This document shows positions 3,559 to 60,257 of a DNA stretch of 64,000 bases, piece after piece. Location: NCBI GenBank assembly GCA_963790825.1, contig CAWBPM010000003.1, positions 56,353 to 120,352 on the forward strand. Direction: 5' to 3'. The position numbers and the translations under genes are program-made. The number at the start of each line of letters is the position of its first letter. Position 1 is the first letter of the stretch. The notes beneath the pieces are model-generated. The model was given only the letters and a program-made list of their open reading frames with translations. It ran no database searches and had not been told where the DNA came from. This DNA comes from Candidatus Levyibacteriota bacterium. GTDB taxonomy: Bacteria; Patescibacteriota; Microgenomatia; Levybacterales; UBA12049.

Positions 3559-3593
3559 GTCGTCTAGAACGTTTCCGAGTTCTAGAAACGATC

Positions 3594-14578: not shown

Positions 14579-14649
14579 TAAGCTAGAATACCTCTTCTGT
14601 GAAAAATAATTTTTTTATTGTGATTTAGACTATAAAACTGATGTTTATC

Positions 14650-16959
14650 TCAGATAATTTTATCATAAAATTCTACTTTATTTCTGCCTTTTGGTATAAA
14701 TATGCCACGGAAATTATAATCCGTTCGGTAGATTTTAACCGTAATTGGCTGAGTAAACGAGTTATCGAGTGAAGAGACTTGTGCATGCCAGGTGGGATAA
14801 AATGTGTCTGTCAGCAGAAGAAATCCATCTCCTGAATTTTCCGTATCGAGAGTAATCCTGTTCTCCGAATATTGTATTCGTACTATTTTTCCTTGAGAAA
14901 GTGGATTTGGAACAATACTTTCCAAGCCTTCAACTATTGCAGTATTACGTATGTCAACTTCCGGATTAAAGAGAAGATTGATGCTGTCTTCTTTATTTTT
15001 TGCTTTAATTAAACTTCTAACAAAGAACGCTCTTGGCAGAACATTTGTATTCTCATAAACTTTCGTTTGGCCCTCCTCAAAAACTTTTATTAGTTTGGGC
15101 GAGGCAAGATCCGAAAGACTTAATACATATTTTACGCCCAGTAAATCAATAATTCGCGAATTGTACTCAAACGGCTGAATAATCCGGTTAAATCCGAAAG
15201 GTGCTGTTATATCCGGTTTTCCACGCTCCGAGGCTTTTATGAGTTCACCGTAGCGCATGAGATAAAGCGGATCGTATCCATCTATACTTTGCAGATGATA
15301 GTGGTTTGAAAAATTAGGCGGAAAAATCCGTGAATCGGTTTCCATAATCCGATAGATCCCACTATGGTTTTCCAGAAAAGAAAGGCTTTCGCTATTTGGA
15401 AATAAATACTCTTTATTGGTAAATGTTTCATATTTTTCATAAAACCTATAGAGATCAATAATTGTAATGCCGACTAAAAGAATAACAAGGAGCTGCTGAA
15501 GATTCTTTTTTTTAAATATCGTCATGCATAAAATAATAATTCCTCCTGCAATAAAAATTGCCGTCGGAAATAATAAGTTTCGCCGGGCAATACTTAATCT
15601 TTCAGGAGTAAAACCGCCCAATGTTTGTTTGCTTAGAACAAATACCCATAATCCAAGCAGTATGCAGGCAATAAACAGCAATGGGTAGAGTATGTCTCTT
15701 TTCCGAGAAACTCCAATGTAATAATCCATGCCTAGTACGGTTAAGACAGACAGACAAAAATCGGTCAGGAAAAGCAGTCTTGTCGGTTGAGTCGATAAGA
15801 GAAACGGGATATGAGCTGTATAGGGAATTATTGCGAGAAAAGTCGGTAATGCGAAAATTAACGAGAGAAAAAATACAGATCCGAAAAAGAGTGTTTTTTT
15901 ATCCCGGCGAAAAAACATTGCAAAAAGTGCAAAAACTAAAGGAATAATTCCGACATATCCTACCAGCTCTCCATAGTTCCACGTACTCCAATAATTTAGT
16001 GTCGCAGGATTACCGAAAAAATCGGGAGCGACAAACTGAATCAGGTGCTGCCAAGGCAAAAACCATCCGTCATTTTGCCAATTATTCAGTTGATCGACGT
16101 CACGGGCACTTAAGTTAATAAACTGCAGAGACGGCAGCCACTGCAAAGCCGTAATAATAATAAAAATGCAACCAAGCAGCAGAAATGGCAGATATTTTTT
16201 AAAGTACGATTGTAAAAATAATTTAGCCGGTTGGTTTTTTTGCCATGTTATTTGGAATATACGAGCAAAAAGATATAGATTTGTTATAAGAAATGAGTAA
16301 AACCAGATTTGCAGATGTCCCGAAAAAAACTGTGCGCACTGGGCAAAAAGAAGAATTACAAACCACTGAGTAGATAATTTTGCCAATAATTTCTCTTTTG
16401 CAAGAAGGATTAGAGGTAACCAGACCGCTGTTTGGACAATTGTCCCCCATTCTATCCATGACACTGAAAATCCGCAGAAGGCATAGACAAAACTTCCTAA
16501 GATACAAGCCCATCTGTTAAGTTTAAAATTGACAAGATAGAAATAGAGGAAAATACCTGCAAGAAGCGGCTGCAATAACACTAAAACACTCCAAGCGTAG
16601 GAAAATGGGAGTAGGAAAAAGAGTAAATTAAGCGGGTTAAAAGTAGCGGACTGAAAGTTTGCTAAGAGTGGATAACCGCCCATGCTATATGGATTCCATA
16701 ACGGCAGTTCAAACGTCTTTTCCGCATTAACAACTAACTGCCGCCAAGGTATCTGCTGGCGAACCGGGTCGGTAATTAAGAAATTTTTAAACGGGATTCC
16801 GCGCGGATAATTTGCGGCATATTTATCTAAGAACGGATGGTAGAGACCAACTATCGTATCTGCAGGAATCGGCAGTTTGTCCTGAATTAGAAACTGTCCG
16901 AAGAAAAAGCCAAAAATAACCATTAAAAAAAAGAGAGTGAGAAAACGGTATTTGCTCAT
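14650..16959 (-). CDS. Large polytopic membrane protein, YfhO-like (GT-C related)
   Basis: A 769-aa protein with many TM helices. The N-terminal LPIPADTIVGLYHPF...PLWNPYSMGGYPLLANFQSATFNP block resembles the YfhO family. Confidence 0.45.
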   Translation of the reverse strand: MSKYRFLTLFFLMVIFGFFFGQFLIQDKLPIPADTIVGLYHPFLDKYAANYPRGIPFKNFLITDPVRQQIPWRQLVVNAEKTFELPLWNPYSMGGYPLLANFQSATFNPLNLLFFLLPFSYAWSVLVLLQPLLAGIFLYFYLVNFKLNRWACILGSFVYAFCGFSVSWIEWGTIVQTAVWLPLILLAKEKLLAKLSTQWFVILLFAQCAQFFSGHLQIWFYSFLITNLYLFARIFQITWQKNQPAKLFLQSYFKKYLPFLLLGCIFIIITALQWLPSLQFINLSARDVDQLNNWQNDGWFLPWQHLIQFVAPDFFGNPATLNYWSTWNYGELVGYVGIIPLVFALFAMFFRRDKKTLFFGSVFFLSLIFALPTFLAIIPYTAHIPFLLSTQPTRLLFLTDFCLSVLTVLGMDYYIGVSRKRDILYPLLFIACILLGLWVFVLSKQTLGGFTPERLSIARRNLLFPTAIFIAGGIIILCMTIFKKKNLQQLLVILLVGITIIDLYRFYEKYETFTNKEYLFPNSESLSFLENHSGIYRIMETDSRIFPPNFSNHYHLQSIDGYDPLYLMRYGELIKASERGKPDITAPFGFNRIIQPFEYNSRIIDLLGVKYVLSLSDLASPKLIKVFEEGQTKVYENTNVLPRAFFVRSLIKAKNKEDSINLLFNPEVDIRNTAIVEGLESIVPNPLSQGKIVRIQYSENRITLDTENSGDGFLLLTDTFYPTWHAQVSSLDNSFTQPITVKIYRTDYNFRGIFIPKGRNKVEFYDKII

Positions 16960-30479: not shown

Positions 30480-31667
30480 TCACGCAGTTGCCTGTCTTCT
30501 TTTTACTACTTTCATGACTCCTACAACAAGTGCGGACACGACGATTCCTGTGAGTTCAATATCTATGAGAATTTGAGGAACCGGATTGTTCCAGTTACCC
30601 AAAAACAAAAAGGGTACATAGATTAAAAGTGCAAAGAAAGGTAAGATAATGCCGGGTATAAGAACATATTGTTTTTTACTGATCAATGCAGCAAAAGGTA
30701 GCACGTAAAGCAAATACCAGGGCTGAAAATTAGTTCGGACACTAGCTATAATCGTAGCTAAAGTCATAAAAAGAACTATCACTAAAAATAATTTATCCCA
30801 GGAAAGCTGTTTATTCTGTTTTTCCGAGTAGTGAATATATAAGAAAACCGGCAAAAGCAGACCGGTTGCGAACTTTATGGCAAAGGAGACCAGAAGCAGT
30901 AACCAGAAAGTAATATATTTTTTTGTAAGCAGCAAATACACAGCAAAAACGGCAAAAAACAGCATGACGATATCATTATGCGCCGATACCAAACTTTCGA
31001 TAAGAACTAAGGGGTTTAATGCAAAGAAAACGAGGCTAAAAAGTTCTTGATTTGCTGCAAGTTTTTTCTGTATTTTTCCGATGAAATAAACCGTTCCCAG
31101 AAAACTCCCAGCCATAAGAAGTTTAAAAAGAAAAAAAGTCAATAAAAAAATATGGAAGCCTAAAAAAGACAATGGTACAGTAAGCACAAGCCACATAGGG
31201 CCATAAGGATAGGTTCTCTGTGTCCAGTGCATAAACCCAAGCATGGGATCCGACGTATAATCAAGAGCCTTATGCTGATATGGATTTTGCTGATAGAAAG
31301 TTACAATTTTGGCATCAAAAATATAGTTGAATAAGTCGTAAGAAAAAGCGTTATAGGAAAAAGCTAGAATAACAGTCGTAATAATAACTGTCAGCCAGAT
31401 AAGCTTTCGGCTCAGCAGTCTTTTATAAGCAAGAATCAGAAACAAACCGTAAAAAATAAAAAGCAGGAGGATGATGCCGATATACAAAGCGGTTGATAAC
31501 GGCCTCTCAAAGTAGCCGACATATTGAAATGCATTCTCAATTGCGTGTAACGATTTAATTTTAATAATTGTCAGTCCCAGGTCGGTTTGCGTAAATGAGT
31601 ATAAAAATAATGCCAGAATTAGGAAAAGATAAGAAAAAACGAGCAGCAGTACCTTATTTTTAAACAT
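30480..31667 (-). CDS. Polytopic membrane protein, GT-C-like (DUF2029/GT87-like candidate)
   Basis: Has ~10 TM helices and the block HWTQRTYPYGPMW. The track start at 31736 overlaps the upstream GT2. The ATG at 31667 (MFKNKVLLL) is more likely. Confidence 0.4.
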   Translation of the reverse strand: MFKNKVLLLVFSYLFLILALFLYSFTQTDLGLTIIKIKSLHAIENAFQYVGYFERPLSTALYIGIILLLFIFYGLFLILAYKRLLSRKLIWLTVIITTVILAFSYNAFSYDLFNYIFDAKIVTFYQQNPYQHKALDYTSDPMLGFMHWTQRTYPYGPMWLVLTVPLSFLGFHIFLLTFFLFKLLMAGSFLGTVYFIGKIQKKLAANQELFSLVFFALNPLVLIESLVSAHNDIVMLFFAVFAVYLLLTKKYITFWLLLLVSFAIKFATGLLLPVFLYIHYSEKQNKQLSWDKLFLVIVLFMTLATIIASVRTNFQPWYLLYVLPFAALISKKQYVLIPGIILPFFALLIYVPFLFLGNWNNPVPQILIDIELTGIVVSALVVGVMKVVKRRQATA

Positions 31668-31671
31668 GTAG

Positions 31672-32433
31672 TTATAAATTTTTATATTTTCCGCTAATGA
31701 CGTTCTTTTTAATTTTGAGAAGGTCGAGTATGCCAAAAATCGAATCCTGAATCGGATTTACCCGTCTGCTTTCGACATATAGCCACGTTACAGGTACTTC
31801 TTTAATTTTATATCCCATAATTTCTGCGAGATATAAAAGCTCTACATCAAATCCGGATGAAACGCTCGATCCGGAAATTTGCGAAAAACCATGATGAATC
31901 TTACTAACTCTTTCAAATAATTTTTTTGCGGTAACATTACGAAACATTTTAAATCCACACTGGGTATCCGATATGTCGGTAAGTCCGACGATAAGTTTTC
32001 TCAGAACAATACTGGAAAGAGAAATAAATTTTCGAGTCACCGGAGCACCTTTACGCTGTCCTTTTCGTGAGCCGATAACGATTTCGTAGTCTTGGTCAAA
32101 GAACGGAAGAAGTTTATTAACCTCCTCGATCGGTGTCGCCTGGTCCATGTCGGTAAAAAGGATAAGACTTCCCTTTGCCGCCAATACTCCGGTTGTTACT
32201 GCGCCTGCTTTTCCCGAATGTTTATTTTCTATGAGTTGAAAGGCAGGATTCTCATGCGTAAATTGCCTGATGAATTCAGTACTTCCATCTCTTGATCCAT
32301 CGTCGACAATAATTACTTCGTATGCAAAGTTATCGTTGTCAAGAAATCTTTTGACTTTATCTAAGACGCCTTTTTGCAAATTTGCCATCTCATCAAAACA
32401 AGGGATGACAACGGAAAGATATATTGAACTCAC
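31672..32433 (-). CDS. GT2 polyprenyl-phosphate sugar synthase (DPM1-like)
   Basis: The N-terminus reads LSVVIPCFDEMANL...VIIVDDGSRDGS...GKAGAVTTG...LFTDMDQATP. Confidence 0.8.
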   Translation of the reverse strand: MSSIYLSVVIPCFDEMANLQKGVLDKVKRFLDNDNFAYEVIIVDDGSRDGSTEFIRQFTHENPAFQLIENKHSGKAGAVTTGVLAAKGSLILFTDMDQATPIEEVNKLLPFFDQDYEIVIGSRKGQRKGAPVTRKFISLSSIVLRKLIVGLTDISDTQCGFKMFRNVTAKKLFERVSKIHHGFSQISGSSVSSGFDVELLYLAEIMGYKIKEVPVTWLYVESRRVNPIQDSIFGILDLLKIKKNVISGKYKNL

Positions 32434-32497: not shown

Positions 32498-33049
32498 TTA
32501 ATTAAGTAAGATCGTTGTACGGTCTAACCAATACCGCCCTTTAAGCAAAGCAGCATCTGCGCCGTTATAATCAAAAAAGCCATTACCTGTCACTTCTATT
32601 AAATCTGAGGAGGGAAGAAGAAAGATAAGATTTACAGTCTTTGGATCGATTTGATAGAGCAGGAAATTTTTTCCCTGAAGAATGGCTTTATCTGTCGGGA
32701 CGCTACTTATGTTCAATATACTTTTTAATGACGGTTGAGACACAAGACTGTCGCTGCTCGTTAAATGGGATGATGAAAATTTAGAGAAGGTTAAGCCCTT
32801 ATAACCCGCTTTGGTACTTCCAAAACTACTTCGTTCTAAAACAAATGAACCGGGACCGTAAAAATCTCGAAATTGCCAGAACACTTTAGGATCAATCTCA
32901 CCTTTTCCGCGAACATCCTGCACAAATTGTAAATATCTCGCTTGCCTTACGCTTGGGAATAAACCAGAAGAAATTTTTGGCTGCAGTAAAAGTAATAAGA
33001 CAATAATAAGAACGCCGCCGAGGATATAGTAGCCATAGATCAGTTTCAT
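32498..33049 (-). CDS. Hypothetical secreted or membrane-anchored protein
   Basis: Has an N-terminal hydrophobic helix (YILGGVLIIVLLLLL). No recognisable domain was found. The ORF is 183 aa. Confidence 0.35.
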   Translation of the reverse strand: MKLIYGYYILGGVLIIVLLLLLQPKISSGLFPSVRQARYLQFVQDVRGKGEIDPKVFWQFRDFYGPGSFVLERSSFGSTKAGYKGLTFSKFSSSHLTSSDSLVSQPSLKSILNISSVPTDKAILQGKNFLLYQIDPKTVNLIFLLPSSDLIEVTGNGFFDYNGADAALLKGRYWLDRTTILLN

Positions 33050-35160: not shown

Positions 35161-36126
35161 ATGGTAGAAAGAAATTTTTCCGCTCTTCTAGCAGCTCAAA
35201 ATGATAAAGGAAATCATGTTTGTGTCGGGCTGGACTCTGATTTTTTTGAAATACAGAAGCGCATTAAAAATGGTAGCTTAAAACTTCAAATGCAGGCTTA
35301 TCCAAGTAAAGCAGAGACGGTACTTGCGTTTAATCGAGCAGTCATTGATGCTACTTCGGATATTGTAGCAGCATATAAACCCAACGCAGCGTTTTACCGA
35401 AGTCTCGGATATAACGGATCGGGTGCGTTAAAAAATACTGTTTTGTACGCCCAACAGAAAGCACCTGAGGCAGTTGATATTGAAGACGCTAAACTCGCCG
35501 ATATCGGCAATACAAATGAGCAATATGCAAGAGAAGTATTTGATTATCATAATGCCGATGGATTAACCGTTCATCCGTATTTAGGCGGTGAAGCAATTGA
35601 ACCATTCTTGAAAAGAACAAGTAAAGGAATTCTCGTTCTTGCCAGGACATCAAATCCGGGCGGCGGAGAATTCCAAGATCGAGTCGTATTAGGTCCTGAA
35701 ATAGAAAAGCTTTTCTTAGATAAAAAGGCTATCTCAGACATTGAGGAAATTATTATTAATCTAGGAGAGTTAAGAAGTAATTCGGGGGAATTATATAGAA
35801 AAGTGGCTGAAGATGCCGTGGAATGGAACAAGAAGTATAAAAATGTGGGACTTGTAGCCGGTGCGACATATCCAGGGGAAGCCGGGATAATTCGACGGAT
35901 TGTAGGACCAGACATGCCGCTTCTCATCCCGGGAGTCGGAGCACAAGGACAAACTGCTGCGGAAATTGTTCCGCAAGCCTTACGACGAGGCGAACGGGGA
36001 GTAATTAATTCTTCACGTGGTATTATTTTTCCTAAGATTCCGGAAGGACAACGATATTTTGACGTAGTAAGAGCAGAAACAGTGAAACTTCACCAACAAA
36101 TTCAACTAGCACAAAGGGTAGCATAA
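35161..36126 (+). CDS. pyrF: Orotidine 5'-phosphate decarboxylase (long, type 2 form)
   Basis: Carries VCVGLDSD...AAYKPNAAFY...DAKLADIGNT, the OMPDC Lys/Asp catalytic motifs. It lies in a pyr gene context. Confidence 0.7.
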   Translation: MVERNFSALLAAQNDKGNHVCVGLDSDFFEIQKRIKNGSLKLQMQAYPSKAETVLAFNRAVIDATSDIVAAYKPNAAFYRSLGYNGSGALKNTVLYAQQKAPEAVDIEDAKLADIGNTNEQYAREVFDYHNADGLTVHPYLGGEAIEPFLKRTSKGILVLARTSNPGGGEFQDRVVLGPEIEKLFLDKKAISDIEEIIINLGELRSNSGELYRKVAEDAVEWNKKYKNVGLVAGATYPGEAGIIRRIVGPDMPLLIPGVGAQGQTAAEIVPQALRRGERGVINSSRGIIFPKIPEGQRYFDVVRAETVKLHQQIQLAQRVA

Positions 36127-36128
36127 TT

Positions 36129-36872
36129 ATGGCAAGAGAAATATATAGAGGACCTGAGAGACTAACAAGACAGCAAGAAAGATTAGCTGAGTTATTGTTT
36201 GATACGAAAACAGAAGCTCCGGTTACGAGAAGGAGAGATCTCCCCGGAGGAGAAGAAGTTGAATTTTATAAGATTACACGCCCGCTTAGTCCGATCGCTT
36301 TCGCACAAGAAGGTGAATTTGTTCTAAAGTCTCATGAAAAAAATCGAAGAGCCCCTCTTTCCCCTATTTATTTTAGCCTTCGCAATTTAGATGAGGAGCT
36401 TGTCGATCAAATTGGTATTGTTCTGGCAGAAATTCCAAGTCGAACTAAGCCGGATGTTTGTGCAGGAATTCCTGCTGCCGGCATACCTCTTGCCGAAGCA
36501 TATGCAAGACATGCACATATTCCTGTCATTGATATTTTCAGCAAAGAACAAACAGAGGCAGGACGACGGATTATCCCGGGCAAATTAAATGAATTTTATG
36601 GTCGGAGATTGAGAATTGTAGATGATCTCGTAACAAAAGGCGATACGAAATTTGAAGCTTTACATGCAGCTGAAGGACTTGGTTATGAGGTGTTTGATTT
36701 GATGGTTGTCGTTGACAGACAACAAGGTGCAACTAAACAATTGAAACAAGCTGGATATAGGCTGCGAGCTGCATTTACTATGGATCAGGTTCTCCGCTTT
36801 GGCGTCCGAACTGATAGGGTTACCCCTGAGCAATACCAACAAGTCGCAAATTATCTTCGGCCACAAAAATAA
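36129..36872 (+). CDS. pyrE: Orotate phosphoribosyltransferase-like (type I PRTase)
   Basis: Has the PRPP-binding motif RLRIVDDLVTKGDT. It is positioned between pyrF and pyrD. Confidence 0.55.
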   Translation: MAREIYRGPERLTRQQERLAELLFDTKTEAPVTRRRDLPGGEEVEFYKITRPLSPIAFAQEGEFVLKSHEKNRRAPLSPIYFSLRNLDEELVDQIGIVLAEIPSRTKPDVCAGIPAAGIPLAEAYARHAHIPVIDIFSKEQTEAGRRIIPGKLNEFYGRRLRIVDDLVTKGDTKFEALHAAEGLGYEVFDLMVVVDRQQGATKQLKQAGYRLRAAFTMDQVLRFGVRTDRVTPEQYQQVANYLRPQK

Positions 36873-36886
36873 AACTGCTTTTTATT

Positions 36887-38014
36887 ATGCCGGAAATTTA
36901 TAAAGGAATCGTAAGACCTATTCTTGATAGAATTCACCATTCAGAAGAAATGCATGCTGCAGCTCGTTATGGACTTCATCTTGCTGAACGGATCCCCGGC
37001 GGATTAAAACTGGTTGAACAATTTGCCTACGAACGAAAACAATTTACCGATCCAAGACTATATACTCGGGTAGGCTCAGTTTATTTGGACAACCCAACAA
37101 TGGTAGGCGCCGGATGGGATAAAAAGGGCATAGCAGTAGAAGCATTATACCGACTAGGAGCTTCTGCTGTCGAAGTTGGCGCAGTTCTTCCCTACAAACA
37201 GTACGGTAATAAAAAGCCACGACAATTTATGCTGGCTTCGGGAGTGGCAGTCAATTGGTTAGGTTTTAATGCTCCGGGAATGTTCGATGTGGAGAAAAAC
37301 TTAGCCCGATATCAAGACAAAGGAATTCCAATTGGTATTAACGTAGGAATTAATAAAGAGATTGATAAAGATGCGCCGAGGATGTATGGTCTTGTCATAG
37401 AAACTTTATATGATAAGGCGCAGTTTTTCGTGTTAAATGTTTCTTCTCCGAATACACCTGGACTGAGGGAGAGACAACAAAAAGAAGAGCTAAACGAAAT
37501 AGTACAAGCATCCAAAGAAGCAATGAGAAGAAAAGGAGAAGAAAAAGATTTGTATGTAAAAGTATCTCCTGATGCAAATAATAATATTATTGATGGAGTT
37601 ATCCAGGTGGTATTAGATAATAAATTGACAGGAATTGTTGCAACTAATACGACAAATAATCCTGAGATTAAAGGTAAGTATGGAAAGAAATGGAAGACGG
37701 AACAAGGAGGATTAAGCGGTGACGATAAGGATTATAGACGGATGGCGACTGAAAAGGTAGCATATATTTACCGTGCGACGAAAGGAGCAATTGATATTAT
37801 CGGTGTTGGTGGTGTTAAAGACACGAGAACAGCACTTGAAAAAATTCAAGCAGGAGCATCGGCAGTACAAGTGGTAACTGCAATTCGCGGAGAAGGAACA
37901 ACCGTTTTCGTACGAATTAATCAGGGACTCGTTACACATATGGAAAAAGAAGGAATAGATAGTATTCGTCAACTACGAGGAACAACAGCAGCAAAAAATT
38001 TATGGCAGGTATAG
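36887..38014 (+). CDS. pyrD: Dihydroorotate dehydrogenase
   Basis: Carries VLNVSSPNTPGLR, ...GGLSG... and GIVATNTT motifs. Confidence 0.8.
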   Translation: MPEIYKGIVRPILDRIHHSEEMHAAARYGLHLAERIPGGLKLVEQFAYERKQFTDPRLYTRVGSVYLDNPTMVGAGWDKKGIAVEALYRLGASAVEVGAVLPYKQYGNKKPRQFMLASGVAVNWLGFNAPGMFDVEKNLARYQDKGIPIGINVGINKEIDKDAPRMYGLVIETLYDKAQFFVLNVSSPNTPGLRERQQKEELNEIVQASKEAMRRKGEEKDLYVKVSPDANNNIIDGVIQVVLDNKLTGIVATNTTNNPEIKGKYGKKWKTEQGGLSGDDKDYRRMATEKVAYIYRATKGAIDIIGVGGVKDTRTALEKIQAGASAVQVVTAIRGEGTTVFVRINQGLVTHMEKEGIDSIRQLRGTTAAKNLWQV

Positions 38015-39096
38015 CAGAACAATCAAGATATATAATACTTCCCGGACTCACTGAAGTTCATGCGCATTTAAGAGAACCCGGAGCAACGCATAAAGAGGAT
38101 TTTAGTACCGGTTCGAGAGCTGCAATCGCCGGCGGAATAACGACGGTCCTCGATATGCCGAATAATCCTGTGCCGACTGTCAGTGAGGAAGCTTTAAAAA
38201 ATAAAATTAATCTAACTCGTGGAAGAATATATGCAGACGTTGGGTTTCATTTCGGGGCAACGGAAGAAAGCAGTTATGTTTTTGGCGCAGTAGAAAATAA
38301 AATATTTGGCTATAAAGTCTATATGAATCCGACAACAGGTAACTTACTCGTCGACACAGAAGAGGCAGATGTGGTTTTTGCTATGACTCCCAGAAGTAAA
38401 GTTATTATTGCTCATGCAGAAGGTGAGACACTTAATACTGCTATTGGATTTGCTGAGAAATACAGAAAGAGGCTGCATGTCGCACATGTAAGTACAGCAG
38501 GTGAGGTTAACGCAATTCGTGAAGCAAAAGAAAGAGGAAAAACCAGAATAACAAGCGAGGCAGCTCCCCACCATTTTTATTTAACTGAAAATGATATTCC
38601 GCATTTGGAAATGCCTTCATTTGGCATTATGAAACCGCCGCTTGGTCGGGAATCTGATGTCTTAGCGCTTCGGGAAGGAATGAGAACTGGTGTTATCGAT
38701 ATAGTAGCAACAGACCATGCTCCACATACTCGAGAAGAAAAAGAGTCAGACAAACCGCCTTTTGGCGTTCCCGGACTTGAAACTTCACTTCCTTTGATGC
38801 TTAATCTCGCTGCCCAAGGAGTAATCCCCTTTGAGAAGATAAAAACATTGATGTATGATAATCCGAGGATTATTTTCGCTATTCCTGAGCAAGAAGATAC
38901 CTATATCTATGTTGATCCGGAAGCCAAATACACTATTGATGGCAGTAAATTACAAACTAAAGCAGGTTGGACGCCGTTTGACGGAATGCGGGTACAAGGG
39001 AAAATAGTCAGTGTTACACTTCGCGGGCAGAAGGTTTTTGATGGCGAACAAGTCGTCGGCAAACCAGGAGGCAGAGTTGCTTTACCCAGACGATAG
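38002..39096 (+). CDS. pyrC: Dihydroorotase (amidohydrolase superfamily)
   Basis: LTEVHAHLREPG supplies the metal-binding HxH motif, and ATDHAPH is also present. It overlaps pyrD by 13 bp. Confidence 0.7.
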   Translation: MAGIAEQSRYIILPGLTEVHAHLREPGATHKEDFSTGSRAAIAGGITTVLDMPNNPVPTVSEEALKNKINLTRGRIYADVGFHFGATEESSYVFGAVENKIFGYKVYMNPTTGNLLVDTEEADVVFAMTPRSKVIIAHAEGETLNTAIGFAEKYRKRLHVAHVSTAGEVNAIREAKERGKTRITSEAAPHHFYLTENDIPHLEMPSFGIMKPPLGRESDVLALREGMRTGVIDIVATDHAPHTREEKESDKPPFGVPGLETSLPLMLNLAAQGVIPFEKIKTLMYDNPRIIFAIPEQEDTYIYVDPEAKYTIDGSKLQTKAGWTPFDGMRVQGKIVSVTLRGQKVFDGEQVVGKPGGRVALPRR

Positions 39097-39157: not shown

Positions 39158-40282
39158 TTGATGAGCTCTATCCTGTTAAAAATTGCTTTATTTACTCTTT
39201 CCTTGATTGTCGTTGTGCTTTTTGTATTCCCTAGAATTACTGTAAGAGGCGCGTCAGCGTCTCATGTGGTAATTTCAGAAGTTCAGCTGGCAACTGCAAC
39301 CTTGTCTACTGATGAATTCGTTGAATTGTATAATCCTACCCTTACCGATGTTAGTTTAAGTGATTGGCATCTCATTAAACGGACTGCGGCAGGAACACCA
39401 AGTATTCTCGTCGCGACAATGTCGGGAACAATCAAATCTCATGGTTATTTTTTGATAGGCTCATCTGACTATAGTGGTACGGTATCTGCCGACATAACCT
39501 ATTCTAATACTGCAAATTCTCTGGCTGATAATAATACAGTAGTTTTAGGCAATAATCAGAACATAATAATCGATGAGGTGGGATTTGGCTCGGCAATTGC
39601 GAGCGAGACGGCAACAACGACAAACCCAGCAGCTGGCAAAAGTAAAGAAAGGAAAGCGAGCAGTAGTTCTACTAAGGACACGATGAAAATTGGCGGAGTG
39701 GATGAATTTACGGGAAATGGTGAAGATACGGATAATAATGCCAGTGATTTTGTTTTACGTGATATTCCTCAACCGCAAAACAGCCACTCAGCTTTAGAAC
39801 CTGTTTTGTTACCTACTCCGACTAACACGCCCTCCCCAACCAACACACCAACACCGACGCCTACGCTTACGCCAACCCCAACGCCATCAAACACCCCGAC
39901 ATCTACTCCTACTGATACTCCGGTTCCGACAAATACACCTAGCCCAACTCCTACCGATACGCCGACCCCGACACCTACTCAGACGCCGACAGAAACTCCA
40001 ACCGAAACTCCTACCAGTACACCCACACCAACCGACACCCCTATACCAACTGAAACGCCAACGCCAACTGATACGCCGTCTCCTACGCCTACGGAATCAA
40101 TAATGCCCGCTTCTACTTTCACACCAACGCCGACCGTACCTCAGGAGACATTAACACCTACACCAACAAAAATGCCTGTTTTTACACCTTTTCACCTTTC
40201 CTGCACCGTTGAATATAAAACGTTTCGCATTTTCCTGGTCACTATACGCTTCCCACTCATTTCTTGCAAAATAATCAGATAA
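39158..40282 (+). CDS. Secreted protein with lamin-tail domain (LTD) and a long Pro/Thr-rich linker
   Basis: Has an N-terminal signal/TM segment. The LTD signature reads [32 protein letters not shown]....GYFLIG. It is followed by ~95 residues of (P/T/S/N/D/E)TPTPT repeats. Confidence 0.55.
39813..40100 (+). repeat. Imperfect tandem ACNCCNAC(N) codon repeats encoding the PT-linker
   Basis: Visible periodic ccnacnccnac pattern in the DNA. It is coding, not a CRISPR array. Confidence 0.6.
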
Positions 40283-43367: not shown

Positions 43368-43970
43368 TTATTTAAGTCGAGTGAAGCGAAGCTGTAATTT
43401 CCCAATAGTATAGGGTCTCTCGGGAATAAATACATATGTTTTTAAGTCTCTCTCTATACCCCGTCTCTCTGTCCAATTACTATCAAATGTCAGAAAGCTT
43501 TCATTAAGCTCTTCGTCTTTTAGAAATTGTGTTTCAAATACTGATCTATTCCCCAGCAGCCGCGCCTGTAATACATAATTAATCTCCCTAGATTTATCAA
43601 CCCGCTTAGGTTTAACCTGTAGATATTCCAAAGGAATACTCGCTCCGAAATTAACAAAGAGCGATTCATACTCCTCTTCTTTACGAATAAGATCATAATG
43701 CGAAGAGATATTGAAGTATTCAATTGTTTGCGGAGTCAAAATTACTCCTGTCTTAGGAATATCTGCTGATTTTTTGTCGAATACTTCTAAATTACGATGT
43801 AAGCTTATGTTAACCAAACCAATTCCCGGGATCGGAACCCTTGTAACTTTCCCCCGATATTCAGGATCATTATGCTCATAGGGAACGTTTCTTAAGTTAG
43901 GACAGGGAGTAAACCACTGACCTACATACGCTTCCGTTTCAGATGGAGTTCTATAATCTTTTTCCGGCAT
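43368..43970 (-). CDS. Hypothetical protein (no recognisable domain)
   Basis: A 200-aa soluble ORF with a plausible start. It is encoded immediately upstream of the PH-domain gene. Confidence 0.35.
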   Translation of the reverse strand: MPEKDYRTPSETEAYVGQWFTPCPNLRNVPYEHNDPEYRGKVTRVPIPGIGLVNISLHRNLEVFDKKSADIPKTGVILTPQTIEYFNISSHYDLIRKEEEYESLFVNFGASIPLEYLQVKPKRVDKSREINYVLQARLLGNRSVFETQFLKDEELNESFLTFDSNWTERRGIERDLKTYVFIPERPYTIGKLQLRFTRLK

Positions 43971-45153: not shown

Positions 45154-45906
45154 ATGGAATCAACTGAACAGGAGTTAATGTCTATAGGTAAGACTATCGA
45201 TAATGCCAAAAATGATTCATCAGTACCAGCTGAAGTAAATTCACCTATGGTTTCTGTTGCTTTCAGTAGCATGTTTACTTTAGTAACAACATTCTTTACA
45301 GGTATTCTTATCAATAACGATAATTATTTCTCATATCTTAAACAATGTAAATGTGATCCTCTATCAATAGATATGCCAATATTGCTAATGATAATAAGTA
45401 CTTTTGGATTTCTTTATGCAACATTAATTTATGCTAATATAAATGGTCTTCTCATAAAACATGAGAAGAGAAGGGCATTAAGAGGTGCAACTTTAGGAAA
45501 TATCTTATCAGAGTATTTTGGAGTTTACCTGGTTATTCTGTCTATACCATTGATTATTAGTATTGTTTCTAATAATCCATTGTTAAATATAGTAACCATT
45601 ATTGTTAATTCATTTGGGTTAGTTATTTATCATCTTTCTGGTTTTTCGCTTATGAGCAGGCATTTTGGAGAGATAGAACATTTTATTTATGTTGTAATAA
45701 TTATTGTATTTGAGTTAGCGTTATTTTCCGAACAACATTTAGTCATGACTTCTAATACTTTAAGTAAGATAAGTATAAATTTAATTTACTTTAGTACAAC
45801 TATAGATTTATCTCTTTTTGCTCTAACTACATGCCTGTCAATAGCATTTATAAGTTATCTTGCATTTAAGGCATATATTGATAATGAGAAAAAGCCATAT
45901 AACTAA
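45154..45906 (+). CDS. Hypothetical multi-TM membrane protein (very AT-rich gene)
   Basis: A 250-aa protein with ~6 hydrophobic helices. Local GC content is well below the window average. Confidence 0.4.
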   Translation: MESTEQELMSIGKTIDNAKNDSSVPAEVNSPMVSVAFSSMFTLVTTFFTGILINNDNYFSYLKQCKCDPLSIDMPILLMIISTFGFLYATLIYANINGLLIKHEKRRALRGATLGNILSEYFGVYLVILSIPLIISIVSNNPLLNIVTIIVNSFGLVIYHLSGFSLMSRHFGEIEHFIYVVIIIVFELALFSEQHLVMTSNTLSKISINLIYFSTTIDLSLFALTTCLSIAFISYLAFKAYIDNEKKPYN

Positions 45907-47471: not shown

Positions 47472-47939
47472 TTATATTTCTTCTATTTCTATTTTTACAA
47501 TGTTATACTTAATTTTCCCTGCCGGGGCTATGGTTTCAATCTGATCGCCCACTTTTTTTCCTACTAATTCACTTCCTAATGGAGAAATATATGATATTTT
47601 TCCCTTTGCCGGATTTGCCTCGAAGTTTCCGACAATGGTATATTTATATGTTCTATCTTCATTTTGCAGCGTAATAAGACAACCAATACTTACAGTCTTA
47701 TTATTCATCGGTACAATAACAACTCCGTAAGAAAGAAGCATTTTTAATCTCCGCAGGTTACTGTCAATTCCCGACAATTTCCAACGTGCGGCTTTATAAT
47801 AACCGTTTTCGCTCAGGTCCCCCATTTCGCGGGCTTTTTTCAAATCTAAAACTGCCGCCGGACGATTTTTATGAAGCGTTTCATATTCGTCTTTAACAGC
47901 ATTGTAGCCCAAAGGTGTAAATGGGATTCTTTTTGTCAT
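47472..47939 (-). CDS. greA: Transcription elongation factor GreA
   Basis: Carries GDLSENGYYKAARWKLSGIDSNLRRL and a C-terminal FKBP-like ISYISPLGSELVGKKVGD block. The ATG at 47939 (MTKRIPF) is preferred over the track start, which overlaps lon. Confidence 0.8.
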   Translation of the reverse strand: MTKRIPFTPLGYNAVKDEYETLHKNRPAAVLDLKKAREMGDLSENGYYKAARWKLSGIDSNLRRLKMLLSYGVVIVPMNNKTVSIGCLITLQNEDRTYKYTIVGNFEANPAKGKISYISPLGSELVGKKVGDQIETIAPAGKIKYNIVKIEIEEI

Positions 47940-47943
47940 GTGA

Positions 47944-50331
47944 TTAGTCCGCTTTATATGGCTGGGGTGCGTGAACCATGGGACGTACGTGTGGCGTTCC
48001 TTCTTTTTCACTTCTCTTATGCATTCTCTTTGCTAATGGTTTGGCGAGTGCAATTTGCAAAACTTCATCCATATGCGATACCGGTTTGAAAGTTAAATCA
48101 CGTTTTACTTCAGACGGAATATCTTCCAAATCTTTCTCGTTGTCTTTGGGAATAATTATAGTTTTTAGTCCCGCCCGATGCGCAGCGATAACTTTTTCCT
48201 TGAGTCCCCCGATTTCCAAAACCCGTCCGCGAAGCGTTACCTCCCCGGTCATACCGACTTTTCGCTTCACCGGAATTTTTGTCAGAGCCGAAACAATCGC
48301 AGTCGTAATCGCTATACCTGCCGAGGGACCGTCTTTCGGTACAGCACCTTCCGGTACATGTACATGCACATCATATTTAGCATAGAATTTATCCGGCAAA
48401 CCCAGTTCTTCCCCACGGGTTCTGATGTAAGACATGGCAGCCTGCGCCGACTCTTTCATCACATCTCCCAGTTGTCCGGTAAGCATCAGATTGCCTTTTC
48501 CCGGCATCAGCGCTACTTCGATAAACAGAATTTCTCCTCCTGCTTCGGTCCAGGCAAGACCGGTTGACATGCCGATTTCATTTTTCTTCTCGATATTTGT
48601 GGCACTAAATTTGATTGTGCCCAAGTATTTAGGAATATCTACTCCTTTAATGACAATCTTTTTCTTGTGGCCTTCTGCAACACGCTTTGCTACTTTTCTA
48701 AACACGGCTGCAATTTTTCTCTCCAAGCCCCTCACGCCTGCTTCACGGGTATAATGCTGAATAATAAACTGGATCGCTTCGTCGGTTAATTGTACTCTCC
48801 TGGTGTTCAGTCCGTTCGCCTCAAGCTGTTTTTCTAAAAGAAAATTCTTGGCAATTTTAAATTTCTCATCATGTGTATAGCCTGCAAATTGGATAATTTC
48901 AAGTCTGTCCCTAAGCGCCGGCGGAATAGTATCAAGCACATTAGCAGTCGTCACAAACATCACATCAGACAGATCAAACGGCACCTCTAAGTAGTGATCC
49001 GAAAATTGCGAATTTTGTTCCGGATCCAATGCCTCGAGAAGCGCACTGGACGGATCACCTCTAAAGTCTGCGCCTACTTTATCAATCTCATCAAGCATAA
49101 AGACCGGATTTTTCGTACCCGCATCTTTAATGCCTTGAATTATCCGTCCCGGTAATGCACCGACATAGGTTCTCCTGTGTCCTCTGATTTCCGCTTCATC
49201 CCGTATGCCACCGAGTGAAACCCGAGCGAATTTACGGTTAAGCGCACGGGCTATAGACTTACCGATTGAAGTTTTCCCAACGCCCGGAGGACCGACGAAA
49301 CAAAGAATAGGTCCTCTGATTTTCCCTGCCAGTTTATGTACAGCCAAGTATTCCGTAATTCGCTCTTTGGCTTTATTTAGGCCATAATGATCCTGGTCAA
49401 GAATTTTTTCAGCTGCTTTAATATCGGAATCGCTTTTACTTTCAATACTCCAAGGAACGCTGACCAGCCAATCAATGTAATTTCTGATATAACCTGCTTC
49501 GGGATTAAATTGATTCATGCCTTCCAATTTCTTTAATTCTTTTATCGTTTTCTCTTCTACTTCCTCAGGCATTTTTGCTTCTTTGATCTTCATTCTAAGG
49601 TCGTTATATTCACTTTTTTCGTCTTCTCCCAATTCTTTCTCAATGGTTTTTAACCGCTCTCTCAACATTGCTTCTCTGGCACCTTTTTCAAAACGCTCCT
49701 GTGTTTTGGAAGCAATTCTTCTTTCAAGTTCCAATACTTTAATCTCTTTTGCCAGAAGATCTGTGAGTTTTCGCAGACGTTCTTTTACATTTACCATCTC
49801 CAGAAGTTCCTGCCTCTCCTGTGGTTTAAGATCAAGTGCACTAGCGATCAAATCTGAAAGTTCCGAAGGGGAATTTTCGGACATAATATTCATAAAGACT
49901 AAAAAGTCGGCGGACTTGCCGAAATTCATAGCTCTGCGGAATTCATTCGTCAAATGATTACAAAGCGCTTCGATCTCCGGACTATTTTCAATAACATCCG
50001 GTACTTCCGTAACCTTCGCTACCAGGAAGGAATCATGTTTTTCAAAGCCCAAAATCTTTACCCGGGAAACACCCCGAACTTGCGCGTTAATTTCGCCGTC
50101 AGTCCGAATCATCCGCTCTATACGGGAAAGTGTCCCAACAGAATAGAGATCCATAGTGGTAGGATCATTCAATCTGGCGTTTTTCTGCAGAACGAAACAA
50201 ACAATCCTTTCATGTTGAAATGATGATTCAAGGGCTGCAAGACTTTTCGGCCTGCCAAAAGTAAGAACCGAGTCTGTATTTGGGAAAATAATGCCGTCTC
50301 GAATTGGAATAACTGGTACAATTTTATCCAT
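47944..50331 (-). CDS. lon: ATP-dependent protease Lon (LonA)
   Basis: Has an N-terminal LON domain, Walker [10 protein letters not shown], and the Ser-Lys dyad region [18 protein letters not shown]. The ORF is 795 aa. Confidence 0.9.
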
Positions 50332-50454: not shown

Positions 50455-52266
50455 CTACTCTCCGCTTTGTACAGATAACTCTCTCAGGAAGAGGTTGTAG
50501 TCAGAGGCATTGACTGATCCGTCATCGTTAAGGTCACTCTCTTTTCCGTTAGTTCCGGGACAACTGGTAGGAGGAGTAAAGTCTGAGTAGCAACCAAGGA
50601 GTATATTGTAGTCCAGGATATTAAGTGTATTGTCGTTATTGATGTCTCCTACGATAAGAGAAACAGGGGGAATGGTTGTAGTTTGTCCTTGAGTAAGTGT
50701 AATAATACCGGGGAGTTGTTTTACCAGGTACTTATCAGTCTTTACCTTTACTAAGTAGGAGCCGGTTGGAACAGTACTTCCCAGACTGACACTTCCTGAG
50801 AATCCCCCGCTGGAGGGAGAATAGGTAATGGTTCCTGAAAGAGTAGTAACAAGAACGTTACTTGCGTTTACTACCTGTACGGTTAGTGTACGATTGGGAG
50901 TCAGAGGACTTGTATTCCCCGAAGTTCCCGGGGCAACCGAGTCTCCGGCTGAGCCTATTCCGTGCAGAAGAATACTCGGGAAGGAGAGAGTGGTAGTACC
51001 CGGTAGCGGAGTAGGAGTCGGAGTTGCACTGGGCATTACAGATGGAGTAGGACTACTGGTTGGTTTAGGAGTTGGGGTGGGAGTGTAAGTCGGGGTTGGT
51101 ATTGCACTAGGTTTTGTTGAAGGGGTAGGCGTCGGAAGAGTGGTTGGAGTAGGCTTTACACTGGGAGTCGGGGTAATTGTACTACTGCCTAATTCAAATG
51201 CATAGTAATTTGCAAGGTCGGTAGCAGCGGGGCGAAGAGACCAGTTGCCGGTACTGCCGGTAAAAATATGGGTATAACCACCTGAATTTGCTGTGCCGGC
51301 TCCTACCCAGTAATTTAAGCCTTCAATATAACTAAGAGATTCAAAAGCGTTTAGTTCTGCTTTAAGGACTTGCTCTTGAGTAGTGTCACTAACATTAATT
51401 GCATTACTATAGCCCATTTCAGCAATGATAATCGGTATACCCGGATGTGTGTTCTCTATTGTTGAGAGTACCGAAAGCCAATCGTTGGCAGCAGTAGTTG
51501 GATCTGTGGTATTCTGATCAGGATAACTGTCAACAGTCATGACTCCAAATTGACTGATAGTTGAATTGTATAGCGCAGTAGGATTTTCGTAATACCACTC
51601 GCTCATTGATCTCACATTAGTATTTACTCCTGTGATACCCAGTTGTGCAAGTGCGCTGTTGGCTGTTGTTGTTACTCCTAAAACAAACTGATTATATGCA
51701 TCTGTTCCTGCATTTGGTGCATTCTGCCAACTCCAATTAGCCCCATAAGTATTTACCCAGTAAGGACTATTTTCCGGTTCAGGGTTCATATCCAGAATAT
51801 CTCCTGACTGAAAAAAAGTTGGATGGGCAAGAATAAAAGCACTTTCCGCACTTAAATATTGGGAAGGAGTCATAGTTGCTGTTACTCCATAGTTCCCTTC
51901 CCAGGCATTGGGGTGGATACGGAACCAGACGTGTTTGCCAGCTGCACGGACAGCGCTGATCCATTCTTGCATATACGTTGGATAATCCCAATGGACATCG
52001 ACGGTAATATGGGTTGTTTTGAGTGTTGCCGCAAGGTTTACATCATCAGCAATTTGAGTGGGAGTTAGCTGATTGGTATCCGTATCCATGCTTTCTTTCA
52101 TGGTATCAACCGAGGCGTAAAGGAAATGCGCATTTACCGCTGCGTACTGGTTTACTCGTTGTTGTTTTTGTGCATACCAGACAGTAACGACTGTCGCTGC
52201 AAGAAGGAGAAAAACAATCAGTACACTAAAAAGATGAGTCTTTTTTTTCATCCAACTTTTTCTCAT
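50455..52266 (-). CDS. Secreted GH26-like (clan GH-A) glycoside hydrolase with PT-linker, beta-sandwich domain and C-terminal type I dockerin
   Basis: Has a signal anchor, then VWFRIHPNAWEGNY...NPEPEN...IIAEMGYS (GH-A acid/base and nucleophile-like blocks). A TPTPSVKPTPTT... linker follows. The C-terminus carries two Ca-binding dockerin repeats, GDINNDNTLNILDYNILLG and DLNDDGSVNASDYNLFL. Confidence 0.6.
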   Translation of the reverse strand: MRKSWMKKKTHLFSVLIVFLLLAATVVTVWYAQKQQRVNQYAAVNAHFLYASVDTMKESMDTDTNQLTPTQIADDVNLAATLKTTHITVDVHWDYPTYMQEWISAVRAAGKHVWFRIHPNAWEGNYGVTATMTPSQYLSAESAFILAHPTFFQSGDILDMNPEPENSPYWVNTYGANWSWQNAPNAGTDAYNQFVLGVTTTANSALAQLGITGVNTNVRSMSEWYYENPTALYNSTISQFGVMTVDSYPDQNTTDPTTAANDWLSVLSTIENTHPGIPIIIAEMGYSNAINVSDTTQEQVLKAELNAFESLSYIEGLNYWVGAGTANSGGYTHIFTGSTGNWSLRPAATDLANYYAFELGSSTITPTPSVKPTPTTLPTPTPSTKPSAIPTPTYTPTPTPKPTSSPTPSVMPSATPTPTPLPGTTTLSFPSILLHGIGSAGDSVAPGTSGNTSPLTPNRTLTVQVVNASNVLVTTLSGTITYSPSSGGFSGSVSLGSTVPTGSYLVKVKTDKYLVKQLPGIITLTQGQTTTIPPVSLIVGDINNDNTLNILDYNILLGCYSDFTPPTSCPGTNGKESDLNDDGSVNASDYNLFLRELSVQSGE

Positions 52267-54554: not shown

Positions 54555-55068
54555 ATTAATTTATCTTACATAGGATAGTAAAATGCGATCGGGTTTTTGG
54601 GGAAAATTTAGAAAATAGTTTTGGGTCAAGAAAGGAAAAAGAAGATTATTTATAACTAAATTTAGATTTGATATTGGTAGAATTTTTTTTAAATTCCGGC
54701 AGTTTAAAGCCATGCTGGAATTATAACATGACTTATAAGTATGTCAAGTACCCTGTAAGAATTCAAGCAATAGGTTGTAAGAGAAACGCAAGAAACGCTT
54801 GAGACGTTGATGCAAACTACTGCTGAGATTATATCTTATAATGATAGGATAAACAAGATAATTCAACAATGAAAAGTTAGGTTATTGATAAACAAATTTA
54901 TCTATTGTAAGAATATTTATATAGGATGTAAACGACTTCTCAATTATTCAGGCTCTACAAGAAGAATTTATAAGTTACGAAACATATTAGACAATTCGTA
55001 ACTATGGATCATTACGCAAAAGCATATCCAATCTTTAGTAGAATCAAAGGCATTGAGGAGGTGAAAAC

Positions 55069-56092
55069 AATGCTGAGGAGTCTAAAAAGATTCTCTAAAG
55101 ATGAAGTAGCTAAAGAGAGACTAAAGATAATAGAGTTTTATGATGAGTATGGAGAGAAAACTACTAAGAAAGCATTTGGTGTTGGAAGAAACACTATCTT
55201 TGTATGGAAGAAACGATTACGGATGAGTAGGAATTCCATTTCTTCACTTATTCCCACTCCAACAACTCCGAAAACAAAAAGAGTCATGGAAACCCATCCT
55301 AAAGTAGTTGCATATATCAAGCTCTTAAGAGAAGAGCATGTGAGACTGGGGAAAGAGAAAATTAAACCATTGCTCGATGAGTACTGTCTAAAGGAAGACC
55401 TGCCTATTATTCAGGAATCAACCATTGGGAAAGTCATCAAGCGTAACAATTACTTTTTTCAAAAGAGTGGCAAGATCTATCATAATCCCTCCCATAAGTT
55501 TGCCCAGGCCAAACGAAAGAAGCGAGACAGGATTAAAAGACCACCCAGACCGGAAAGCTTTGGCTATATGGAAATGGATACAGTGATTAAATTTGTTGAT
55601 GGAGTAAGAGTATTCTTTTTAACAGCAATTGATGTGAAGTTAAGGTTTGCATTTAGCCTGCCTTATACAAAACTGACGAGCGGTGTAACTGTAGACTTCT
55701 TCAAGAAACTGCAGTTTGTTTATCCCATTCAAATTACCACCATACAAACAGACAATGGACTGGAGTTTCTGGGGGATTTTGAAGCATACTTGAAACAACA
55801 ACATATCCATCAGGTATTTATCTATCCAAGATGCTGCAAGATCAATGGAACTATTGAGCGATTCAACAGAACAATTCAGGAAGAATTCATTGATGAAAAT
55901 CTTCATTTATTCCATGACCCGAAACTCTTCTCTTCAAAACTCATTGAATATCTGCTATTCTACAATACAAAGCGGGTACATAAATCCTTGGGACTTAAAA
56001 CTCCACTGGGATATCTGCAACAACAAGGAGGTATGTCTAATAACTCCGTAACCTCTACACTACATTGTAATTGTACTATTATATTGTTATAA
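55069..56092 (+). CDS. IS481-like transposase (integrase core rve domain with N-terminal HTH)
   Basis: The DDE triad context is MDTVIKF...IQTDNGLEF...INGTIERFNRT. The strong SD GAGGAGGTGA at 55052-55061 favours the ATG at 55069 over the track start at 55004. Confidence 0.65.
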
Positions 56093-59831: not shown

Positions 59832-60257
59832 GTGTCTGAAAGAGAAATAAATACAGGAAACAATGAATCATTCCCTCAAAAGATGGCTCGTGGCTGTATT
59901 TTTTTAACACAAAAAGAAGCTAAGTTATTATATCTTCGTAATGGGAGACAGCGTAAGAATATATCAGCAACCATTCAAAATCTAATACAGCCTAGAATTG
60001 ACAGACTAAAAAATACTACCCCAGAAGAACGAGAAAGCATGCTTAAAGGATATCTCGGGCAAGTTATAAGTAGATCAGAGATAGGGCTTGAATCTTTTGA
60101 AACAGGAAATTCCCCTCCATTTATAGAAGTTAACTGGGTTCTCCCTAAAACATTCATTGACATGATAGGTAATGTCGCTGATCTGGGCAGGCTAAGTAGT
60201 GAAAGTTTAATGAGCTGTATGCTCTCAGATGTTTTAAATATGAGGGAGAGTAGTTAA
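59832..60257 (+). CDS. Hypothetical protein flanked by module-A repeats
   Basis: A 141-aa ORF with no recognisable domain. Confidence 0.3.
   Translation: MSEREINTGNNESFPQKMARGCIFLTQKEAKLLYLRNGRQRKNISATIQNLIQPRIDRLKNTTPEERESMLKGYLGQVISRSEIGLESFETGNSPPFIEVNWVLPKTFIDMIGNVADLGRLSSESLMSCMLSDVLNMRESS

Follow-up and report, generated by a model that had tools for sequence, protein, structure and literature searches.

The stretch of DNA analysed here (the window, 64,000 nucleotides) encodes on its minus strand, at 50455–52266, a protein of 603 amino acids (aa). We consider this protein probably to be an exported retaining glycosidase of clan GH-A which is docked as surface cargo on single-cohesin proteins by a C-terminal dyad of an X module and a dockerin (XDoc); the function is predicted. 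The open reading frame (ORF) of 603 aa plus stop is uninterrupted in the ORF list and coincides exactly with the interval given in an earlier reading made from the DNA without database searches (the sequence-only reading), which had left the strand unstated.

From the N-terminus, the protein consists of a signal or anchor, a GH-A catalytic domain, a Pro/Thr (PT) linker, an X module and a dockerin, all encoded on the minus strand. The hydrophobic segment aa 12–32 (LFSVLIVFLLLAATVVTVWYA, 52171–52233), read from the sequence, is preceded by a K-rich stretch and followed by a Q-rich one, and is a putative Sec signal peptide or signal anchor. The catalytic domain (aa ~49–359, 51190–52122) is separated by a Pro/Thr/Ser-rich linker (aa 365–423, 50998–51174) from an X-module-like β-sandwich that begins TTTLSFPSILLHGIG (aa 424–535, 50662–50997), and the dockerin (aa 538–599, 50470–50655) lies next to the C-terminus. 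Compared with shuffled sequence, the surroundings of the gene were not enriched in promoter-like sites, and a search there for terminator-like sites found none.

Catalytic domain

No glycosidase family of Pfam or NCBIfam was detected in aa 40–365, not even when the domain was searched in isolation with a threshold of E ≤ 10. The domain has 248 homologues at 50–68% identity, every one of them unannotated, and a profile search of 1.84 billion representative proteins put the family size at about 536 clusters at 50% identity. The family profile gave chance matches only when it was run against all PDB sequences. The AlphaFold2 model of the domain (33 sequences, pLDDT 89) is a (β/α)8 barrel whose nearest structural neighbours belong to the glycoside hydrolase (GH) families GH5, GH164, GH113 and GH1, and several of the top neighbours are active on β-mannosides.

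Residue conservation was computed over 270 aligned family domains, the strand positions being taken from the AlphaFold2 model. E163 (51778–51780) is kept in 248 of 250 domains (99%) and stands three residues past strand β4 in the motif PEPE (aa 162–165, 51772–51783), whose second glutamate, E165, is kept in 225 of 246 (91%) and is the alternative candidate for the same role. E283 (51418–51420), kept in 232 of 239 domains (97%), lies inside β7 (domain residues 240–245, i.e. aa 279–284) in the motif IIIAEMGYS at the end of this strand (aa 279–287, 51406–51432). R116 is 99% conserved, and W102, D156, D246, Y248 and W320 are also kept. In the model, the glutamate pair at β4 and β7 is the ‘4/7’ arrangement of clan GH-A, from which we infer a retaining glycosidase with E163 as the putative acid/base and E283 as the putative nucleophile. 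The modelled barrel, its two glutamates and the hydrophobic N-terminus agree with the earlier proposal of a secreted or anchored clan GH-A enzyme.

Like GH5 (GH5_18 9Y4V and Op5Man5 7BOB), GH164 (6T5O, a β-mannosidase) and GH113 (5YLH, a β-mannanase), the domain combines a (β/α)8 barrel and β4/β7 glutamates with conserved Arg, Trp and Tyr residues on the barrel strands. In contrast, its identity to these enzymes is only 8–16%, no Pfam GH model including PF00150 matches it, even in distant members, and its acid/base motif is PEPE where GH5 has NEP. Two Pfam matches to GH5 (Cellulase) were seen among family members. The 603-aa enzyme is a member of an uncharacterised clan GH-A family with neither a Pfam model nor a solved relative.

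The sequence-only reading had assigned GH26-type motifs to two genes of the window. This is correct for the gene at 1–838 (minus strand), of which only the N-terminal 279 aa are present, the 3′ end lying beyond the window start; it matches Pfam Glyco_hydro_26 (PF02156) with 42 bits against a cut-off of 20.2 and has the glutamate motifs WEMNG and ISETA. The assignment fails for the 603-aa protein. Although GH26 belongs to the same clan, PF02156 did not match the protein, BLASTP found no match between it and the GH26 fragment of the window, hhalign of the family profile with this fragment gave a probability of 5%, and no GH26 structure was among the Foldseek top 50 of the domain model. GH26 membership was rejected on these grounds, and the label should be dropped and the family assignment corrected. 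Matches to the Pfam models for GH26 and GH2_C/Glyco_hydro_cc among family members were also rejected as family links, since those that were localised are separate N-terminal domains.

Genomic context and putative substrate

The relationship with GH26 is of another kind. In a Pfam domain survey of 63 distant or long family members, protein P0245 was found to contain GH26 at aa 85–317 and the family domain at aa 1315–1633, and in P0303 and P0282, too, the family domain comes after a GH26 domain. P0245 has a GH26 domain close to the GH26 fragment of the window (phmmer E 5e-50). As GH26 is a separate domain in the three fusion proteins, the tie appears from these sequences to be functional and not familial, the two families being fusion partners elsewhere. 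A functional link of the enzyme to GH26 and to glycan biosynthesis is upheld by domain fusions and synteny in other organisms, but not by family membership. Carbohydrate-binding modules (CBM35/CBM6, ricin, CBM2, CBM4_9, CBM96 and Laminin_G_3) are attached to several members, and single members are fused to glycosyltransferase (GT) domains, either GT2 or PMT_2.

The GTDB representative genomes that encode family members belong to Ktedonobacteraceae, Chloroflexia, Acidimicrobiaceae, Patescibacteria (Saccharibacteria among them) and, in a few cases, Gammaproteobacteria. Outside the candidate phyla radiation (CPR), the GH-A gene is part of a conserved cluster with a multi-transmembrane GT2 (Glyco_tranf_2_3/Glyco_trans_2_3), a PMT_2-like GT-C, a PQQ β-propeller with a ConA-like domain, and GtrA or GtrA-GT2. 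The cluster was found in four lineages, Ktedonobacteria, Acidimicrobiaceae, Chloroflexia and Gammaproteobacteria; the locus of Dictyobacter alpinus Uno16 (L010) carries a clustered homologue. The sole PDB sequence relative of the clustered GT2 is 6YV7 (E 3.4e-6), named ‘GT family 2’, which we take to be an archaeal membrane mannosyltransferase. In all CPR loci (the window, L002, L012, L021, L030 and L031), the GH-A gene is solitary amid housekeeping genes. The CPR copies are scattered among sequences of Acidimicrobiia and Ktedonobacteria in a rough neighbour-joining tree (no support values), which suggests repeated transfer of the gene between phyla.

In view of the fusions to GH26, the structural neighbours that act on mannosides and the gene context with PMT and GtrA, our best guess at the substrate, at somewhat less than an even chance, is a β-mannan-like envelope or exopolysaccharide glycan. 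This glycan could be the organism’s own or that of a neighbour or host. With its clear genomic signature (clusters of GT2, GT-C, PQQ and GtrA genes, and fusions to GH26), the family offers an experimental way to its substrate.

The best surviving alternative differs from our preferred interpretation in the substrate only. It holds that the hydrolase trims or releases the envelope glycan made by the organism’s own GT-C/GT2 island, as BcsZ or PslG do for their exopolysaccharide systems, and that the XDoc keeps the enzyme at the producing surface. Besides the conserved GT2/GT-C/GtrA clusters of non-CPR members and the single fusions to GT2 or PMT_2, the window itself speaks for such self-directed remodelling. 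Its glycan island (905–34748) contains nine PMT_2/PMT-type GT-C genes, three genes for PTPS_related membrane proteins, YfhO, seven small GT2, two GT4 and one Wzx-like flippase, in accord with the abundance of mannosyltransferase-like genes noted in the sequence-only reading, and a GH26 gene is present as well. However, the GH-A gene stands alone in every CPR locus, BLAST found no orthologue of the clustered GT2 (C3) or GT-C (C1) in the window, other members bear CBMs typical of enzymes attacking foreign polymers, and the scatter of the CPR copies suggests acquisition by transfer. Self-directed remodelling is possible in our opinion, but rather unlikely.

Tandem duplicates of the GH-A gene were seen in Acidimicrobiaceae and in a metagenome-assembled genome of Chloroflexia (L001 11194–13716, L003 11279–13531, L004 11264–13528 and L023 4402–7592). 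The second copy in Acidimicrobiaceae (L001, L003 and L004) is 750–840 aa long, with an unannotated N-terminal half and a barrel split by an insertion, whereas that of L023 has 577 aa and an uninterrupted domain.

XDoc cassette

Pfam Dockerin_1 (PF00404) matches aa 540–596 with 30 bits against a gathering cut-off of 22.9. The two repeats described in the sequence-only reading are present verbatim as Ca loop 1 (DINNDNTLNILD, aa 541–552, 50611–50646) and Ca loop 2 (DLNDDGSVNASD, aa 578–589, 50500–50535), both with D or N at positions 1, 3, 5, 9 and 12. The folding check that this reading had proposed gave a modelled helix after each loop (module residues 127–136 and 164–175) and an XDoc fold like that of CipA. 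Judging by its sequence, the Ca-binding dockerin is intact.

The dockerin does not stand alone. The best phmmer match of the whole protein in the PDB was the X module plus type II dockerin of CipA (2b59_B, E 1.4e-5), and the alignment (aa 496–595) starts inside the β domain ahead of the dockerin. The only strong relatives of the dyad are CipA type II XDoc. The last 180 aa recur as a single unit in 103 proteins at 35–58% identity, with about 96% of the query covered; the rest of these proteins is GH16, M28 peptidase, CARDB or CHRD, or merely a signal and a PT linker, and one of them is named Minisyncoccia. Scanning of metagenomes with the XDoc alignment yielded 76 loci with 118 XDoc ORFs, in all of which (118/118) the X module is accompanied by a dockerin. 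The dockerin is one half of a 180-aa XDoc cassette, like CipA in sequence and fold, and not the lone type I dockerin that had been proposed; as the CipA match extends across both modules, ‘type I’ is the name of the Pfam model only.

The cassette family has two invariant cysteines in the linker between the dockerin repeats (C559, 50590–50592, and C569, 50560–50562, in the 603-aa protein) and a motif LHGIGxxGDNxNP that opens the X module. The two closest homologues of the enzyme bear plain dockerins, N-terminal in P0001 and C-terminal in P0002. Since the dockerins are at different ends, the docking module seems, from these sequences, to have been shuffled onto the GH-A enzyme more than once.

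Type II dockerins mediate attachment to the cell surface, and X-dockerin dyads anchor scaffoldins to surface cohesins (PMC12484212). The CipA XDoc of Clostridium thermocellum binds the type II cohesins of SdbA, OlpB or Orf2p (PDB 2B59, 3KCP and 5G5D), whereas binding by the cassette described here is predicted. This cassette serves as the tag of an enzyme and of numerous further cargo proteins, while that of CipA sits on a nine-cohesin scaffoldin and, unlike ours, does not have the invariant Cys pair. The candidate receptors here have a single N-terminal membrane-helix anchor and not SLH modules or sortase, and the host, in contrast to that of CipA, belongs to the CPR, and no cellulase was seen.

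Cohesins and the docking model

The cassette stands at the extreme C-terminus of 112 of the 118 XDoc ORFs, behind upstream parts of 0–1010 aa. In 44 of the 118, these parts comprise a signal or membrane helix, a domain of 150 aa and a PT linker. The 150-aa core was trimmed, before it was tested for similarity to cohesins, from a single-linkage cluster in which CBM-like and VWA parts were mixed with signal peptides. Of 25 core sequences, 13 match Pfam Cohesin (member 1 with 30.5 bits against a cut-off of 24.1), and eight of the nine PDB profile matches are cohesins, with ScaB type II cohesins on top. By these sequence matches, the 150-aa domain is a cohesin. Altogether, 53 cohesin ORFs were found across 39 of 77 loci; every one of them contains exactly one cohesin, and 44 are fused to XDoc, forming adaptors (Coh-XDoc) of about 400 aa.

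Besides L110, 21 of the 76 loci encode a second type of cohesin protein. It has about 200–220 aa, one N-terminal membrane helix and a divergent cohesin with the motif QLEIAYDP...TGRISYAL, and in most mapped loci its gene lies just 3′ of an XDoc gene (examples are L058 7533–8183, L062 10589–11242, L067 10619–11278 and L110 15035–15637; 18 further loci carry it). This membrane-helix cohesin (TM-cohesin) is a candidate membrane-anchored receptor. On the 1.14-Mb contig of L110 (ERZ25039485 contig_6640), three tandem Coh-XDoc genes are followed by the short cohesin gene (9144–15637), whose precomputed Pfam label is independently, if weakly, Cohesin. The first of these Coh-XDoc genes is apparently split by a frameshift and one contains VWA; the layout resembles a scaffoldin (sca-type) gene cluster, and the genome has about 1.1 Mb or more. 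The target enzyme, the Coh-XDoc proteins and the TM-cohesins share a type of N-terminus with a K-rich start, about 20 hydrophobic residues and a Q-rich stretch (QxxQ..R), as in the window at 52171–52266, in L074 at 3068–4267 and in L058 at 7533–8183; it may serve for sorting or anchoring, or be a signal that is cleaved off.

XDoc cargo domains include VWA, CBM-like, GH16, GH26-like and M28 domains, and no GH48 or GH9 was found among them. One GH26-like XDoc protein (L053, 4515–6935) is 32% identical to the GH26 fragment of the window, so that the truncated gene at 1–838 may also end in XDoc. XDocs of cohesin-bearing and enzyme-bearing proteins did not split by identity, and no specificity classes can be inferred from them. 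Locus L068, which carries an XDoc gene, shares with the window three adjacent genes in synteny, at 52–63% identity.

Among known systems, the adaptor and anchoring scaffoldins of cellulosomes (such as ScaB of Acetivibrio cellulolyticus and ScaE of Ruminococcus flavefaciens) are close to the Coh-XDoc proteins, which pair a cohesin and an XDoc in the same way as adaptor scaffoldins. The genes are likewise clustered, with an anchoring cohesin gene at the end, and the best PDB matches are ScaB type II cohesins. Unlike scaffoldins, they have one cohesin per protein and a membrane helix as the anchor, none of these genes is in the window, and the cargo in this lineage consists of VWA domains, peptidases and assorted glycosidases, whereas that of cellulosomes consists of cellulases. 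The cellulosome-like assembly that had been envisaged for the 603-aa protein is a fitting description only in a loose sense, as neither a multi-cohesin scaffoldin nor attached cellulases were seen.

In the model that we favour, the N-terminal Sec signal or anchor would carry the enzyme across the membrane, and its barrel would hydrolyse a β-linked glycan, most likely by double displacement with E163 as acid/base and E283 as nucleophile. The PT linker of about 60 residues, possibly O-glycosylated, would hold out the C-terminal XDoc, which seems to be the standard C-terminal tag of many secreted proteins in a Microgenomates-type CPR lineage (VWA adhesins, GH16, GH26-like proteins and M28 peptidase). 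With Ca2+, the XDoc would bind a single-cohesin Coh-XDoc adaptor or a membrane-anchored cohesin, and a small non-cellulolytic cohesin–dockerin network would thus keep the enzyme, together with VWA adhesins and other hydrolases, as cargo on the surface of the cell.

Several points weigh against this model. No cohesin is encoded in the 64-kb window: PF00963 is absent from every window ORF of at least 100 aa, and two lineage-specific cohesin HMMs did not match its six-frame translation. The unannotated ORFs 30480–31736, 32498–33049, 43368–43970, 45154–45906 and 59832–60257 were considered as cohesins and rejected as membrane or unrelated proteins. A partner in the source organism is suggested solely by related contigs, and most of the cohesin-bearing metagenome contigs are without a directly established taxonomy. 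Cohesin–XDoc binding and its specificity are predicted, and the putative substrate and catalytic roles are deduced from fold and conservation. An uncleaved N-terminal helix serving as an anchor would make docking needless for surface retention. The AlphaFold2 model of the XDoc could be biased by CipA structures in the training data, but the independent phmmer match argues against such a bias. The cohesin-bearing partner implied by the sequence-only reading is absent from the window, but cohesins are abundant beside the same cassette on related contigs, of which at least one stems from a relative of the source organism. Such a partner is plausible for the lineage, and a surface docking system is predicted for the source genome.

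The absence of a cohesin from the window would also be expected if the XDoc had no cohesin partner in the organism and acted as a Ca-stabilised module for spacing or for binding to glycan or wall, or bound a partner on another cell, the enzyme being held only by its N-terminal membrane anchor or released. In bacteria and archaea, dockerin-like modules commonly occur without cohesins. No cohesin was seen in some 30 of the 76 XDoc loci, most of which lie on short contigs, and the N-terminus, long and hydrophobic, could act as an anchor that is not cleaved. Locus L032 (1–16989; JGI 3300000571, a 236-kb contig) has at least nine adjacent genes for secreted proteins, each ending in a dockerin, with no Pfam cohesin listed within 20 kb; their cargo includes VWA, GDSL lipase, GSDH, Pel9A-like, SBBP and CAP domains and others, and two have a full XDoc. 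Against such an orphan dockerin stand the fusion of the same cassette to a cohesin in 44 of 118 ORFs, the TM-cohesin gene after XDoc genes in 21 loci, and the XDoc of the 603-aa protein itself, which is about 50% identical to the XDocs of cohesin-bearing proteins and does not group apart from them. We regard this explanation as unlikely.

We give equally little weight to a more elaborate version of docking, in which Microgenomates-type CPR bacteria would possess a non-cellulolytic ‘Lego’ system with a TM-cohesin base, Coh-XDoc adaptors chained head to tail and, as varied XDoc cargo, adhesins and hydrolases. The 603-aa enzyme would then be laterally acquired cargo, a glycan-remodelling hydrolase that could cut the glycan coat of a host from the surface of the episymbiont, and free-living Actinomycetota and Chloroflexota, which keep the hydrolase in clusters for the synthesis of their own envelope glycans, would be possible hosts.

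A GH26-type β-mannanase bound by a type I dockerin to the scaffoldin of a cellulosome-like complex degrading plant polymers is very improbable, for what favours it (the clan GH-A fold, a real GH26 in the window, mannoside-active structural neighbours and a matching Pfam model that bears the name ‘Dockerin type I’) is set against the rejected family membership, the CipA-like dyad and the single cohesins described above.

Relation to earlier reports

According to the accessible portions of the sources cited here, proteins with cohesins and dockerins are expressed in Ca. Shapirobacterales (Microgenomates), in a report that also cites a cellulosome in Ca. Roizmanbacterium (10.1101/2021.08.21.457207); the soil Saccharibacterium T. 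rhizospherense is described as having a ‘two-subunit cellulosome’ (PMC6031116), and in Southlakia the dockerin-domain envelope protein SEML1_0315 is essential (PMC10633639). The authors interpreted CPR dockerins and cohesins in terms of attachment or polysaccharide degradation (10.1101/2021.08.21.457207; PMC6031116; PMC10633639). Annotation of these domains in the CPR is already known, and the view that a dockerin is unexpected in a minimal genome was overstated, as such proteins have been reported in both Microgenomates and Saccharibacteria.

Our results resemble these reports in that dockerin or cohesin domains are annotated in small-genome Patescibacteria. The earlier reports, in their accessible portions, are domain annotations and do not include an XDoc dyad, a Coh-XDoc adaptor, a TM-cohesin or the GH-A cargo family. 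Within the same limits, no description was found in the literature on CPR cohesins and dockerins of an XDoc cassette, of single-cohesin Coh-XDoc adaptors or of a membrane-helix-anchored cohesin, nor of a GH-A cargo family in the context of biosynthetic clusters. The present analysis suggests that CPR dockerins, at least in this lineage, are XDoc cassettes with cohesins encoded nearby, and it offers a testable model of how ultra-small episymbionts might arrange hydrolases and adhesins on their surface. Should binding be confirmed, the membrane-anchored cohesin would form, with the single-cohesin adaptors, a natural cohesin–dockerin toolkit of minimal size outside Firmicutes.

Surroundings of the gene

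The 603-aa gene is flanked by Lon and GreA on one side and by a response regulator on the other. Because the Lon protein (47944–50331) is 79–82% identical to proteins of Candidatus Levybacteria or the Patescibacteria group, we assign the source genome to the CPR, as had been supposed earlier. The Lon relatives P0375 and P0406 (about 80% identity) carry the NCBI labels Nitrospiria or Methylomirabilota and are most likely misbinned CPR contigs. In the program-made ORF list, the Lon ORF runs with its 3′ end 68 bases (47944–48011) into the beginning of the GreA ORF (GTG, 47472–48011), and the true GreA start is probably further downstream. The Rfam search of the window detected two tRNAs only and no rRNA.

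Mobile-element genes are present at 2003–3535 (DDE_Tnp_1 transposase), 3657–4751 (HTH_38 protein) and 55004–56092 (rve integrase), and the first two separate the GH26 and GT4 genes from the remaining glycan island. CPR genomes are usually poor in nucleotide biosynthesis; the region 35161–39096 contains genes of the pyrimidine-synthesis type (OMP decarboxylase, phosphoribosyltransferase, dihydroorotate dehydrogenase and amidohydrolase).

The gene at 39158–40282 encodes a secreted Lamin Tail Domain protein without a dockerin, probably another surface protein; about 150 aa of it are PT-rich, and its C-terminus is short, hydrophobic and Cys-containing. It is a matter of speculation that its PT-rich region and the linker of the 603-aa enzyme (aa 365–423) are substrates for O-glycosylation by the PMT-like enzymes of the window.

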